From Promethearchaeota archaeon (GTDB taxonomy: Archaea > Asgardarchaeota > Lokiarchaeia > Sigyniarchaeales > SOKP01): DNA of 20,268 nucleotides. The notes beneath the pieces were generated by a model. The model did not search any database, was not told the origin of the DNA, and saw only the letters and a program-made list of their open reading frames with translations. The stretch is from the NCBI GenBank assembly GCA_016839745.1, contig JAEOTS010000030.1, forward strand, positions 1 to 20,268. The letters are read 5' to 3'. Shown here one piece after another: positions 7,541 to 11,475 of this stretch (its first letter is position 1; the number at the start of each line of letters is the position of its first letter). The translations under genes and the position numbers were made by a program.

Positions 7541-9103
7541 TTATTTGAGTTTCCTCGTGTTAACAATAAGATCTAACAAGAGTATAATATTATCGTATAT
7601 TTTTTCTCTGTAATCTGAACCGATTTTGAGAAAGAGAACTGATACAACTTTCTCTTCTAAATCCTTATCGATAACAAATTCTTCCATTAATTGTGGATAG
7701 TACGTATCGTCGGAGACTCGGAGCCCGATAAGAACGGCGCGTTTTTTCCTCAACTTTCTGATGACATTCATAAGAGTCTCTTTCCATTTTGGATCAATAT
7801 GTTCCTTTTCTCGGGCGTCAAAAATTATAAAAACGCCATCTGAATTAGAGAGAGTAAACTCGTCATATGTGTAGCCGCTAATTATCAATCCATTTTTGTA
7901 GGGATATAACTTCTCGTTGTGGTTATCTTTTAACTTCGAGAATTCACCCAATCCATCGATATTGATGATCGTCTGGAATCCGGGATTCCAGTTTAAATTT
8001 TCTGTAATAAAGGTTAATTCTAGTATTACAAGTTCTTTTAAAGTCGAAACAATTGCTTCTGTTAAACTTTTCTCTATAAGATCTTTTTCTTTTTTTTTAC
8101 TTTTTATAATATAATGGTAAGCAATTAATTCAAAGGCGTCTTTGACATTGCTTCCCGTCAGAGCGCTCGTTTCAATGTATTCTATACCACTTATTGATAG
8201 TGATTTTGCTAATGCTTCTCCTTCAGCTATAGATACCACTCTTTGTTCAGCTAAATCGTCTTTATTCCCAACAAGAATGATTGGAATATCTGATTCATCA
8301 ATGAGTTCATTGAGTTCTTTAAACCAATCTTTAACTTCTTCAAACGATTCCCTATTAGTGATGTCGAAAACAATGAACGCAGCTTCTGCACCGTTGTAAT
8401 AAATTCTACGAAAGCGTTTAAAGTATTGTTGTGCTCCAATATCCCATAGTTGAACACTTAATTCGTTTCCTTGAAAGTCAAAATTATGAGCAAAGATGTT
8501 AAGACCTATTGTAGCTCGATAATCGCGAGAAAACTTGCGTTCTACAAATTGACGAATTAATGATGTTTTCCCTACCTCATGGTTCCCTACGATTACGAAT
8601 TTAAAGGAATAAGATACGCATTCGTCTAATGCAGATTGACAAATTGATTCTTTTAGTCTTTCGTGTCTTTCTTTTTCATAATCAAAATCGGGGATCGCTA
8701 ATTGAAGTGTATCGCCCTCACTAGAATTAAGTATCTGAGCGGATTTTTCAGCTAAGAAGTACGTATAGGGCGCAACTTTTTCTACTGATGCCATGCTATT
8801 AAAAATTAGACTTAGAATTCTCTCTTCGTCAATTGTGATAAAAAGTAATCGATGTTCGTCCGTGTCAAATGATGCCGTTCCAAATTTCTTAAAGCTGAAC
8901 TCGTTCCTTATTCTTTCTAAAACGGGATTTATTAGTGTAGTTAATACCGATACGATTTCTATGTTACTTTCAGTATCCTTTCTTTTTTCCCCTGCAATAA
9001 CTAAACCTTCGACATCTGATATAATAATTGCTTCTACATCAGAGAATCTTTCCAGAAAATTGTTTAAAATCTCGTCAAATAGTCGTTTTCTATTCACTAA
9101 CAA
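7541..9103 (-). CDS. Roadblock/LC7 - Rab-like small GTPase - degenerate GTPase-fold fusion protein (paralog 2)
   Basis: N-terminal roadblock pattern (VEAIIISDVEGLVIAG). G1 GNHEVGKTS, G2 YRATIG, G3 variant WDIGAQ, G4 GNKDD, G5 ETSAL. The C-terminal ~160-aa alpha/beta domain has no G motifs. The TTG start aligns with the paralog start. Confidence 0.88.
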   Translation of the reverse strand: MLVNRKRLFDEILNNFLERFSDVEAIIISDVEGLVIAGEKRKDTESNIEIVSVLTTLINPVLERIRNEFSFKKFGTASFDTDEHRLLFITIDEERILSLIFNSMASVEKVAPYTYFLAEKSAQILNSSEGDTLQLAIPDFDYEKERHERLKESICQSALDECVSYSFKFVIVGNHEVGKTSLIRQFVERKFSRDYRATIGLNIFAHNFDFQGNELSVQLWDIGAQQYFKRFRRIYYNGAEAAFIVFDITNRESFEEVKDWFKELNELIDESDIPIILVGNKDDLAEQRVVSIAEGEALAKSLSISGIEYIETSALTGSNVKDAFELIAYHYIIKSKKKEKDLIEKSLTEAIVSTLKELVILELTFITENLNWNPGFQTIINIDGLGEFSKLKDNHNEKLYPYKNGLIISGYTYDEFTLSNSDGVFIIFDAREKEHIDPKWKETLMNVIRKLRKKRAVLIGLRVSDDTYYPQLMEEFVIDKDLEEKVVSVLFLKIGSDYREKIYDNIILLLDLIVNTRKLK

Positions 9104-9230
9104 TGGAATACACCATCAAACTGGGATTTGATCAAGAAGAAATTCTTCTTATCATAAATATAAGATAACTTATTATTAAAAGTAGTTATTTAAAAATATT
9201 AGATTTTGGAGTATAATTTTACATTGAATT

Positions 9231-10796
9231 TTACGAATTAATTATTGTACTAAACATAACATCAAGTTCATCATAGATTTCCAATCGGTACTCAAGGCCT
9301 ATCTTAAAAAACAAGAGAGAGACCAATTTTTCTTCCAAATATTCATTAACATTAAATTGTTCCATAATATCTGACCAATCGATTTCGTCAGAAACCCTAA
9401 TACCAATCAGAATTACTTTATTTTCTTTTAAATTTCTAATAATATTAATAACAACTTCCTTCCACTTAGGGTCGATATGTTTCTTGTTTCGCGCGTCAAA
9501 GATGACAAAAACACCATCAGAATTGGCAACATCAAAAGTATCAAAAAGAAAGTTCTTTACAAGCAATCCGTTGGAGTATTGATACAATCTTCTTTCTTTG
9601 TCATCTATTAATTTATCGCAATCACATAAACTATTAACCTCACTTAAGATTTGCAACCCAGGGCTCCAAAACGGATTTTCGGTTATAAACGTGATCTCTA
9701 AATTCTTATTCTTGTTTAAAATCGAATTAATCTGAATCATTAAATTTTCTTTAAGTTTTTGTTCCTCTCGTTCTTTACTCTTCGTTATATAGTGATAAGC
9801 TATTAAGCTAAATGCATCTCCAATATTCTCACCCGTTAAAGCGCTGGTTTCAATATATGAAAAATCGCTATCACTATTTTGTTGTGAGAGCTCGTCAACT
9901 AACGCTATTCCTTCTTTATATTGAACACTTCTCAGATCAGACAAATCGATCTTATTCCCTACAATTACTATGGGAATGTTCTTATTTCCAAGAAATTCTT
10001 TAAGTTCCTCATACCATTTTTTTATATTTATGAAGGTTACTCGTTCACAAACATCAAAAACTATAAACGCTGCTTGCGTTCCGGTATAATATGTCTTTCT
10101 AAATCGTTTGAAATAATCCTGCCCTCCAAGGTCCCAAAGTAAAAAACTAACTTCATTTCCATAAAAGTTCATAGAATGTGAAAGAACATTTAAGCCAAGA
10201 GTAGAGCGGTAATCAAGAGAAAATTTGTTTTCTACAAATCTTCGTACTATTGATGATTTTCCTACTGCTTTATCACCTACGATTATAAATTTAAATTTAT
10301 AAACTCCTCCCGAATCTAAACGCATCTGATAAATCTGTTCTTTTATTCTCCCTGTGTCGCTTATAGTATCAATCTCCGTTCCAAAGTTAGGTATATCAAC
10401 CTGAATAATATCTTCTTCGCTTGCGTTAATAATTTGAGCTGTTTTCTCTGCAAGAAAGTAAGCATAGGGGCTAACATTATCAACAGAAGCCATTGTATCT
10501 AATACTACGCTAAGAGTTGTGTTTTCATCTATAGAAATAAAGAGTAATCGATTTTCTTCTGTGTCAAAACTCGCGGATCCAAACTTTTTAAAAGCAAACT
10601 CGTCTCTTATTCTTTCTAGAACTGGATTTATTAGAGCGGTTAATACCGATACTAATTCCATATCGACACTCGCTCTTTTTTGACCAGCTATGATAAAACC
10701 TTCGTGATCTGATACAATAAGAGCATCTACATCTTCATACTTCAGTAAAAATCTAGTAAGAAGCTCGTTAAACAACCGTTTTTTGTTTAAAGTCAT
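9231..10796 (-). CDS. Roadblock/LC7 - Rab-like small GTPase - degenerate GTPase-fold fusion protein (paralog 1)
   Basis: Roadblock (VDALIVSDHEGFIIAG). G1 GDKAVGKSS, G2 YRSTLG, G3 WDLGGQ, G4 GNKID, G5 ETSAL. Colinear with the 7541-9103 protein over its full length. Confidence 0.9.
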   Translation of the reverse strand: MTLNKKRLFNELLTRFLLKYEDVDALIVSDHEGFIIAGQKRASVDMELVSVLTALINPVLERIRDEFAFKKFGSASFDTEENRLLFISIDENTTLSVVLDTMASVDNVSPYAYFLAEKTAQIINASEEDIIQVDIPNFGTEIDTISDTGRIKEQIYQMRLDSGGVYKFKFIIVGDKAVGKSSIVRRFVENKFSLDYRSTLGLNVLSHSMNFYGNEVSFLLWDLGGQDYFKRFRKTYYTGTQAAFIVFDVCERVTFINIKKWYEELKEFLGNKNIPIVIVGNKIDLSDLRSVQYKEGIALVDELSQQNSDSDFSYIETSALTGENIGDAFSLIAYHYITKSKEREEQKLKENLMIQINSILNKNKNLEITFITENPFWSPGLQILSEVNSLCDCDKLIDDKERRLYQYSNGLLVKNFLFDTFDVANSDGVFVIFDARNKKHIDPKWKEVVINIIRNLKENKVILIGIRVSDEIDWSDIMEQFNVNEYLEEKLVSLLFFKIGLEYRLEIYDELDVMFSTIINS

Positions 10797-10899
10797 AATG
10801 GATTAGTGAGTAATACGAATATATTAGAATGAATTATTAAAAACAACATATACTTAAAAGTGATTATTTTATAATTTATTAAATAGTTTTCTGATTGAT

Positions 10900-11475
10900 A
10901 TGACTACATGTATTATTTGTCATTTGGGTATTATTGAAGGAGTAGATTCTTCCCAAGATTGCCCCAATGGTCATCTCGCTCACATCGATTGTTTGAAAGA
11001 ATGGTTACTTCATTCTTCAAACTGTCCTCTTTGTAGAGAACCGTATCCAGATCAAGTTCTCAACCAATTTAAAGAATTTATTAATCAAAAAGAGACAGAA
11101 AAACAAGCTGCTATAGAGAATGAATTAAAGCAAGAAGAAATGAAAAAAATGGAACAGGTTGCTTCTAAAATAACCTTTTTGAAATTTCTTGAATCTATCG
11201 AAATATTGATTAATGAACAAGAATTCGAGTACGCCTTATCACGATTAGACTTGCATAATAACGGTAGTAATTCAATCCAATGGGAACACGATATCTTATT
11301 TTTAAAAGGGAAGATTAATTACATAAGAGGACGTTATGATCTGGCAATTAATCAGTTATTTAAATTAGTAAAAGAAAAATACGACTATCCCGAGGGATTT
11401 CTCTACCTTGGAAAGGCATACGAAGCCTTAGGTTTAGATGATAAAGCACAATGGGCGTATGAAAGAGTTAAATAA
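10900..11475 (+). CDS. RING-H2 finger plus TPR protein (putative E3 ubiquitin ligase)
   Basis: CIIC-x13-CPNGH-x2-H-x2-C-x3-W-x6-CPLC is a C3H2C3 RING with the conserved Trp. A charged helical linker is followed by TPR-like motifs (LFLKGKINYIRGRYDLAI; YLGKAYEALGLDDKA). Confidence 0.82.
   Translation: MTTCIICHLGIIEGVDSSQDCPNGHLAHIDCLKEWLLHSSNCPLCREPYPDQVLNQFKEFINQKETEKQAAIENELKQEEMKKMEQVASKITFLKFLESIEILINEQEFEYALSRLDLHNNGSNSIQWEHDILFLKGKINYIRGRYDLAINQLFKLVKEKYDYPEGFLYLGKAYEALGLDDKAQWAYERVK

Follow-up and report, generated by a model that had tools for sequence, protein, structure and literature searches.

RRP, a lineage-restricted archaeal protein family joining a divergent roadblock domain, a Rab-like GTPase and a predicted pseudoGTPase

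A stretch of 20,268 nucleotides from a Promethearchaeota archaeon (GTDB lineage Asgardarchaeota; Lokiarchaeia; Sigyniarchaeales; SOKP01; assembly GCA_016839745.1, contig JAEOTS010000030.1), hereafter the window, carries two adjacent genes on its reverse strand, here called A and B. Their products belong to a lineage-restricted family, named RRP here, in which a roadblock domain (domain 1), a Rab-like GTPase domain (domain 2) and a predicted pseudoGTPase domain (domain 3) follow one another in a single chain. The original prediction, made from the sequence alone, had described A and B as colinear same-strand neighbours of 520 and 521 residues with three domains each. The open reading frames (ORFs), their 127-bp spacing and a BLASTP alignment running from end to end (52% identity, 74% positives, 9 gap positions) confirm the former point, and the three domains occur in the same order in 78 of 78 full-length homologs from 54 related loci, so that the anatomy is not a matter of chance. 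The homologs are labelled Lokiarchaeota or Promethearchaeota at source. In Pfam, both A and B give a strong Ras match centrally and weak roadblock-type matches N-terminally, with no match over the last ~180 residues. The mechanism that we infer, and favour with moderate confidence, is that a roadblock dimer would act as a platform for a Rab-like switch and a nucleotide-free scaffold with the G fold. The Rag-like, paralog-specific heterodimer that had been foreseen for the pair is supported only in part.

Domain 2 matches the Pfam Ras family in both proteins (A, residues 168–328, E = 4.3e-48, 163 bits; B, residues 169–333, E = 7.9e-43, 146 bits; cut-off 21.6). A fold search with the full-length model of A returned Rab proteins over domain 2 only. 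The best match is Rab43 (2hup; VIA Z 23.5, root-mean-square deviation (RMSD) 1.9 Å, 162 aligned residues, 36% identity), and as a group Rab43, Rab3, Rab8, Rab1, Rab4 and Sec4 superimpose with VIA Z of 22–23.5, RMSD of ~2 Å, 162–177 aligned residues and 30–38% identity. All 80 family members examined have an intact G1 motif GxxxxGK[ST], switch I threonine, catalytic glutamine, NKxD and ETSA[LK]. Since G1, the switch I threonine, the catalytic glutamine, G4 and G5 are all retained, domain 2 is most likely a real GTP-binding switch. The canonical set from G1 to G5 is incomplete at one position, G3 being DxGAQ rather than DxxGQ in A and in almost all of the family. In Ras, the substitutions G60A and A59G in this region reduce the rate of hydrolysis and perturb switch II, and it is plausible by analogy that domain 2 is a slow, regulator-dependent GTPase.

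The G3 motif differs between the two genes of the window, DIGAQ in A and DLGGQ in B, and this asymmetry had been taken as a feature of the pair. It does not hold generally. DxGAQ is found in the paralog clades A, B, C and X, most B orthologs included, and DLGGQ is limited to a few B copies of the window's own genus (g1), that of the window among them, one copy in genus g3 and one in g13. This distribution rules out switch II asymmetry as a paralog signature; judging by it, DxGAQ is a hallmark of the RRP family and not a paralog marker. Of 62 ORFs with a Ras-like domain in the window genome (3.5 Mb, 192 contigs), only A and one other ORF carry DxGAQ. A rough regular-expression survey of G3 in the same ORFs, in which gene A was misread, counted 21 cases of DxGGQ, 14 of DxAGQ and 10 of Dx[AG]GE. 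The genome also contains three two-domain roadblock-GTPase genes (C181, C93 and C116) with a canonical G3 and no third domain, which are likely the nearest relatives of the RRP family. On a further contig (C129:1-1292 (-) = L009:3-1292(-)), a 430-aa ORF reaching the contig end encodes a Rab-like domain without a roadblock, 41% identical to domain 2 of A and sharing the rare DIGAQ. A second stretch of this ORF has degenerate G-domain strand patterns (RFLILGNEEVQKF, SDGVIVFYD, EIILTTG) and aligns to domain 3 by hhalign with an E-value of 0.0017; the ORF may be another GTPase-pseudoGTPase tandem.

Domain 3 (residues ~355–520 of A) was modelled alone with AlphaFold2 (AF2) from 16 sequences, with a predicted local distance difference test score (pLDDT) of 89. 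The order of its elements, β1-α1-β2-β3-β4-α3-β5-α4-β6-α5, is that of a G domain. By Foldseek against the PDB, its best matches are in the Arf family (8oul HodArfR1, E = 2.2e-6; Arf1, 4.1e-6; probability 1.00, ~10% identity). A search independent of Foldseek (VIA wide) gave 8oul at Z 14.2 (RMSD 3.4 Å, 165 aligned residues), Arf, Arl and Sar1 at Z 12–13, LokiRagM and LokiRagO at Z 11.1, MglA at Z 10.9 and the GTPase-like domain of FBXO4 at Z 10.1 (RMSD 3.9 Å, 146 aligned residues). Profiles of domains 3 and 2 show a weak likeness over strand 4, helix 3 and strand 5 (hhalign, E = 7e-4), and the nearest language-model clusters are of CENP-M (score 0.86), which is a lead only. No Pfam GTPase family matches domain 3. 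Across 80 sequences, the position of the P-loop is occupied by ENxxWxPG[LF]Q and that of G4 (NKxD) by G[IL]RVS, and DxxG is absent. Given the G fold together with the loss of the G1, G3 and G4 motifs, domain 3 as modelled is a pseudoGTPase. The earlier suggestion of a third α/β domain of pseudoGTPase nature is thereby borne out, by Foldseek and VIA for the fold and by the vanished motifs for its state. A literature search found no archaeal pseudoGTPase, no architecture of roadblock, Rab and pseudoGTPase, and no paper on the PDB entries LokiRagO and LokiRagM (8yl2, 9m28).

Domain 3 has conserved motifs of its own, W-x-P-G, FDAR, DPKW, G-I-R-V and F-K-I-G, and its invariant residues are F365, P374, G405, D422, F428, D429, R431, W440, R462 and G495. 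From the topology of the fold, not from coordinates, most of the conserved residues would be at the C-terminal ends of strands 1, 4, 5 and 6, that is, along the edge of the nucleotide pocket, which suggests a conserved functional site rather than decay. In the model of A, one continuous helix (residues 320–358, pLDDT ~90) connects domains 2 and 3. An alternative interpretation might be that domain 3 is a re-tooled sensor, in which W-x-P-G, F-D-A-R, G-I-R and K-I-G bind another ligand or a partner peptide and the rigid helix relays the signal to domain 2, A and B being assembled by way of their roadblock domains as an asymmetric complex with two switches and two sensors. We consider this rather unlikely; if true, it would make RRP the first archaeal GTPase controlled by a pseudoGTPase and an independent archaeal counterpart of Rag-Ragulator logic.

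Domain 1 is a more distant member of its superfamily. The AF2 monomer model of A (50 homologs; mean pLDDT 79, predicted TM-score (pTM) 0.66) has a helix at residues 5–19, strands at 23–30 and 35–40, a central helix running to residue 68, strands at 76–80, 85–92 and 95–101, and a helix at 105–125. This order of helix, two strands, helix, three strands and helix over residues 5–125 is the one described for solved Asgard roadblock proteins, in which a five-stranded sheet is flanked by a single central helix on one side and by the N- and C-terminal helices on the other, and the central helix mediates dimerisation by its C-terminal half (PMC10933270). A family profile matches the solved Roadblock/LC7 protein 7yh1 with an E-value of 0.0048. 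Among 21 homologs, weak sub-threshold matches are to Robl_LC7 in 10 and to MAPKK1_Int in 8. We accept domain 1, as modelled, as a divergent member of the roadblock superfamily that stays below Pfam-level membership. The central helix is the best conserved stretch of domain 1 and the sole low-confidence part of the monomer model. Its conservation between the two proteins, already noticed in the original prediction, is readily seen: the strings VSVLTTLINPVLERIRNEF and VSVLTALINPVLERIRDEF are both present and the helices are nearly identical.

How might these three domains work together? As in the solved roadblock dimers and in MglB, domain 1 would dimerise through its nearly invariant central helix, and roadblock-mediated dimerisation of some kind appears probable to us. 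The roadblock dimer would then form a built-in platform for the G domains, either acting like a GTPase-activating protein (GAP) or guanine nucleotide exchange factor (GEF) or serving as a scaffold. Domain 2 would be the GTP-binding switch, with DxGAQ as its switch II, and domain 3, held to domain 2 by the one long helix, would be a nucleotide-free scaffold or partner-binding domain. The tandem pair came from duplication of a single ancestral gene beside a RING-TPR gene, and A and B would probably be able to form homodimers as well as heterodimers. The ancestral form was probably a homodimer, because A and B hardly differ in the dimer helix and some relatives have a single copy. Because A and B have this interface in common, A:B heterodimers probably form too, although only by a slight balance of probability.

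A complex of A(1–340) with B(1–135) as partner was modelled in three runs alongside three controls, and gave an ipSAE of 0.41 against 0.00 for the three controls, a score that cannot tell A:B from A:A. The runs agreed in at least 70% of contacts, with a partner pLDDT of at least 73, and no interface was reported. In the calibration of this score, 58 of 80 solved complexes attain the mark, as do 2 of 110 mismatched pairs; among those passing, values of at most 0.60 are found for 7 of the 80 solved complexes and for both mismatches. Since roadblock dimers have been solved, the pass may reflect likeness to known structures. The model lends weak support to a roadblock dimer and in this counts for the mechanism proposed above. 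Against that mechanism stand the weakness of the score and several other points. The best match of domain 1 to Pfam Robl_LC7 is 18.9 bits, below the curated cut-off of 23. The impaired Ras mutants G60A and A59G leave GTP hydrolysis by a DxGAQ domain putative, and domain 3 could yet bind a ligand. A requirement for two different subunits would likewise agree with the two or more paralogs that most genomes of the family contain. Finally, the whole mechanism rests on sequence and models.

It might also be imagined that the roadblock domain folds back on the G domain or the pseudoGTPase of its own chain, A and B being independent monomeric switches for different partners. Both domains do lie in one chain, with a linker of ~30 residues that contains a helix, an engineered linked MglA-MglB construct is functional (PMC11016934), and the monomer model reaches the pTM given above. 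However, known roadblock domains act as dimers, MglB needing both of its protomers (PMC11016934); the monomer models poorly a central helix that hardly varies in the family; and the complex model favours contact between roadblock domains over the controls. We therefore hold regulation within a monomer to be quite improbable.

Returning to the roadblock dimer as platform, does it demand one A and one B, as in the Rag GTPases? Such an obligate heterodimer would be specific for A:B at the roadblock domains, with the subunits in opposite nucleotide states, A (DIGAQ) being slow or locked and B (DLGGQ) cycling. Nearly every species in two genera keeps the tandem pair in the same order, a majority of the family's genomes carry two paralogs or more, the G3 motifs of the two window genes differ, the hetero-complex model scores above its controls, and an operonic Rag-like pair of strain MK-D1 is predicted to heterodimerise via its roadblock domains (PMC10933270). 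Against this, DxGAQ occurs in both clades, most B copies included. A comparison of 26 A with 25 B sequences finds only two fixed differences (I96T and D497E) in 520 positions, and 148 positions identically conserved. None of the fixed differences falls in the central roadblock helix, and the search for clade-specific residues at the roadblock interface found none. Genomes with a single copy exist, a three-gene cassette parts A from B in three species, and separate duplications in genera g1 and g12 stay unrejected (p-AU 0.069 and 0.057).

The G domain likewise is Rab-like and not Rag-like. The Gtr1/RagA family (PF04670) scores 14.6 bits for A and 23.3 for B (cut-off 22), compared with 163 and 146 bits for Ras. 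The roadblock is N-terminal in A and B rather than C-terminal. The two paralogs do not form distinct, always-paired subfamilies, given the two fixed differences, a single copy at the locus in nine genera and genomes of 97–100% completeness with one copy in all. RRP is not a Rag family member, and an obligate Rag-type A/B heterodimer is unlikely.

The history of the pair can be followed across the family, where ThiC, ThiDN and the RING-TPR gene stand in this order, the last of them facing one or two divergently oriented RRP genes, with the dehydrogenase-family gene beyond (41 of 54 loci). Two RRP genes are present at the locus in 13 of 13 sampled genomes of g1 (the window counted) and in 9 of 12 of g12, with B always beside the RING gene and A downstream. 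One RRP gene, which is the most frequent state of the locus when genera are compared, is present in g4, g5, g6, g7, g8, g10, g11, g13 and one g2 genome. Genera g4–g8 have a second, dispersed paralog elsewhere (~525–565 aa), and g2 has its own tandem duplicate. Mostly one copy in total is found in g11, g13 and three g12 species, 97–100% complete genomes included. In most genomes with the family at least two paralogs, tandem or dispersed, are found.

Identities of A to A and of B to B (~0.71–0.80) exceed those of A to B within a genome (0.50–0.61), and in g1 A and B are 50–53% identical in every species and ~71% identical to their own orthologs. Each duplication is therefore firmly older than the radiation of its genus. 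In a tree under the LG+G4 model, g1-A groups with g12-A (88 in the Shimodaira–Hasegawa-like approximate likelihood ratio test, SH-aLRT) and g1-B with g12-B and g7 (SH-aLRT 94). The raw identities are nearly flat (g1A-g12A 0.53, g1A-g1B 0.51, g12A-g12B 0.58, g1B-g12B 0.60), and the approximately unbiased (AU) tests, which used the same model, fail to reject separate duplications in the two genera. Orthology of A and B between the genera is favoured, not secure. By these comparisons the duplication is neither recent nor family-wide, and the pair has been kept in nearly all g1 and g12 species since. A recent duplication, usually found singly, had been considered as the outcome that would speak against a paired system. 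The first half of this fails, as each duplication predates the radiation of its genus; as to the second, nine genera have a single gene at the locus.

The cassette that separates B from A in three g1 species (L050:2340-5224, and likewise in L051 and L052) encodes a Ras-family GTPase of 180 aa together with two larger products, 358 and 377 aa long, which have about seven N-terminal hydrophobic segments each and no Pfam match. Because it occupies the spacer between B and A in these related species, gene A probably has its own promoter. With the cassette and the TATA-like runs in the spacer of the window taken together, strict co-transcription of A and B seems unnecessary.

The range of the family was examined with domain 3 as the query. 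By sequence this domain is an orphan: HMMER against 1.84 billion representative proteins found 28 clusters only, consisting of fragments, proteins of ~510–545 aa or one 894-aa form. The distribution was counted with the same query over 400 genomes of the phylum. Within the GTDB family of the window, 124 of 134 genomes have domain 3. The one genome of family f2 has it too, as a copy of 22% identity; the 14 genomes of the sister family f3, closed genomes of 4.36 and 6.04 Mb among them, yielded no match. The only match in family f16 is on a contig of 4330 bp (L077; G073:C309) that carries the RING gene, B, A and the dehydrogenase-family gene and nests inside g12 in the tree; it is probably mis-binned and gives no evidence for a wider range. 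Some long members of 822–896 aa (L066:3687-6155(+), L066:11526-14216(+) and L072:3597-6284(-)) have a C-terminal array of ~5–7 TPR units after the pseudoGTPase, and belong to a clade of dispersed paralogs without a RING-TPR neighbour. The dispersed, C-type paralogs of ~545 aa have a conserved neighbouring ORF of 415–425 aa (L053:6172-7419(-), L084:4589-5842(-) and L086:2447-3700(+)), for which no Pfam match was found.

The features of the locus are collected in Table 1. For gene A, a GTG two codons downstream is an alternative start that gives the 518-aa form on record. The antisense ORFs 8142-8399(+) and 8793-9131(+) were rejected as genes; they are shadows of A, their conservation mirroring that of the sense gene. 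The C-termini of A (..NTRKLK) and B (..TIINS) have no cysteine and hence no prenylation motif, as had been stated for both proteins, and C-terminal cysteines for prenylation are absent from the tails of 80 of 80 family members examined. In one sediment metatranscriptome, two contigs of 151 nt match gene A exactly (8444-8594 and 8619-8769), with DNA carry-over possible. The same metatranscriptome yielded nothing usable for gene B, and such contigs cannot show co-transcription. Metagenomes from marine sediment, sediment and soil contain related DNA.

Table 1. Features of the RRP gene pair and its RING-TPR neighbour in the window
Feature	Position	Strand	Description
Gene A (paralog A, distal copy)	7541..9103	-	Roadblock, Rab-like GTPase and predicted pseudoGTPase; 520 aa, TTG start
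A connecting helix and domain 3, aa 339-520	7544..8089	-	G fold in the model; no GKS/T, DxxG or NKxD
A domain 2, aa 163-338	8090..8617	-	Rab-like G domain; intact G1 GNHEVGKT, switch I Thr, G4 NKDD, G5 ETSAL
A G3/switch II, WDIGAQ	8429..8446	-	DxGAQ in place of DxxGQ
A domain 1, aa 1-135	8699..9103	-	Divergent roadblock, α-β-β-α-β-β-β-α; central helix with nearly invariant NPxLERIR
Spacer between B and A	9104..9230	-	127 bp, A+T-rich, TATA-like runs, GGTG ahead of the TTG start
Gene B (paralog B, copy adjoining the RING gene)	9231..10796	-	521 aa, ATG start; three domains as in A
B connecting helix and domain 3, aa 346-521	9234..9761	-	Predicted pseudoGTPase
B domain 2, aa 164-345	9762..10307	-	Rab-like G domain; G3 WDLGGQ at 10119-10136
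B domain 1, aa 1-135	10392..10796	-	Roadblock domain
Divergent intergenic region, gene B/RING-TPR gene	10797..10899	.	103 bp
RING-TPR gene	10900..11475	+	191 aa; RING aa 3-46, TPR aa ~131-178 (Pfam); head to head with B

The flanking genes are housekeeping-like (an isocitrate/isopropylmalate dehydrogenase-family gene, ThiD/ThiN and ThiC), with the exception of the divergent RING-TPR gene. The latter and the first RRP gene are head-to-head neighbours at 41 of the 54 related loci, across at least 10 genera. Its orthologs (35–42% identity) are found in 13 of the 14 f3 genomes without an adjoining RRP gene, and as the domain 3 query found no RRP in f3, strict co-distribution of RING-TPR and RRP is ruled out. 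One could suppose that RRP forms the GTPase arm of a ubiquitin-type pathway, being a GTP-controlled adaptor or a substrate of the RING-TPR protein, which would be compatible with any of the dimer models. The head-to-head arrangement would fit, and so would the fact that the paralog clade without a RING neighbour includes the fusions to C-terminal TPR arrays. However, the locus has also conserved ThiDN, ThiC and the dehydrogenase-family gene, and simple inheritance may account for the gene order; of the f3 genomes with RING-TPR and no RRP one keeps the order ThiC-ThiDN-RING; moreover, TPR fusions are common. A role of this kind is very improbable.

Of the dozens of small GTPases in Asgard archaea, very few have known partners or regulators, and fusions are the best available clue to which proteins work together. 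RRP offers a compact test system for the action of a roadblock on Rab-like GTPases, and its domain 3 would be, as far as the literature found goes, the first pseudoGTPase domain described in archaea. The value of the family for eukaryogenesis is limited, because its range is restricted to a single family of Lokiarchaeia, it did not turn up in the sister family with the two closed genomes, and its G domain is not Rag-like. Given the restricted range and the non-Rag G domain, RRP looks like a lineage-specific elaboration and not like an ancestor of Rag-Ragulator.

Roadblock-GTPase fusions of Lokiarchaeum go back to Klinger et al. 2016, as cited in PMC4917890, and Ca. Prometheoarchaeum MK-D1 has both roadblock-GTPase and GTPase-roadblock architectures, including the operonic Rag-like pair mentioned above (Tran et al. 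2024, PMC10933270). The inverted domain order and the idea of paired paralogs, both part of the original prediction, had thus already been described for MK-D1 (PMC10933270). Like these Asgard fusions, RRP joins a roadblock and a Ras-superfamily G domain in one chain, in the order roadblock-GTPase and without prenylation cysteines. Different from them, it always has a C-terminal pseudoGTPase, which appears to be an undescribed addition to such a fusion, its G3 is DxGAQ, and by the domain 3 query it is confined essentially to one GTDB family and was not found in the 14 sister-family genomes. The operonic pair of MK-D1 consists of Rag/Arf-like G domains followed by roadblocks, whereas in RRP the roadblock precedes a Rab-like domain.

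With RagA/B-RagC/D and Gtr1-Gtr2, RRP shares two paralogous GTPases, each with a roadblock potentially used for dimerisation, and no lipid anchor. Rag proteins have a C-terminal roadblock, a Rag-family G domain and two clearly distinct, universally paired subfamilies. RRP has the opposite domain order and a Rab-like G domain, A and B have only two fixed differences, some species have a single copy and each chain carries an extra pseudoGTPase.

In MglA-MglB of Myxococcus and Thermus, a roadblock dimer is both GAP and GEF for a small Ras-like GTPase, and an artificial fusion is functional (PMC11016934). The MglB residues for GAP activity, Asn37 and Arg98 (PMC11016934), could not be aligned reliably to the RRP roadblock. 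Both systems pair a roadblock with a Ras-like GTPase, and the action predicted for RRP is by analogy. MglA and MglB, however, are not one chain but two proteins that associate 1:2, and the G3 and switch features of MglA set it apart, whereas the roadblock and the G domain of RRP are naturally fused 1:1 and the latter is Rab-like.

The G fold with lost nucleotide motifs is known from CENP-M, the pG1 and pG2 domains of p190RhoGAP and the GTPase-like domain of FBXO4, and p190RhoGAP has an active GTPase domain and pseudoGTPase domains in one chain. RRP resembles them in that domain 3 is predicted to keep the G fold without its motifs and, as in p190RhoGAP, active and pseudo domains would stand in one chain. 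No sequence relationship of domain 3 to the eukaryotic pseudoGTPases is detectable. Unlike them, domain 3 is archaeal, has a single uninterrupted helix linking it directly to an active-looking Rab-like domain and would carry its own motif set at the edge of the former nucleotide pocket.

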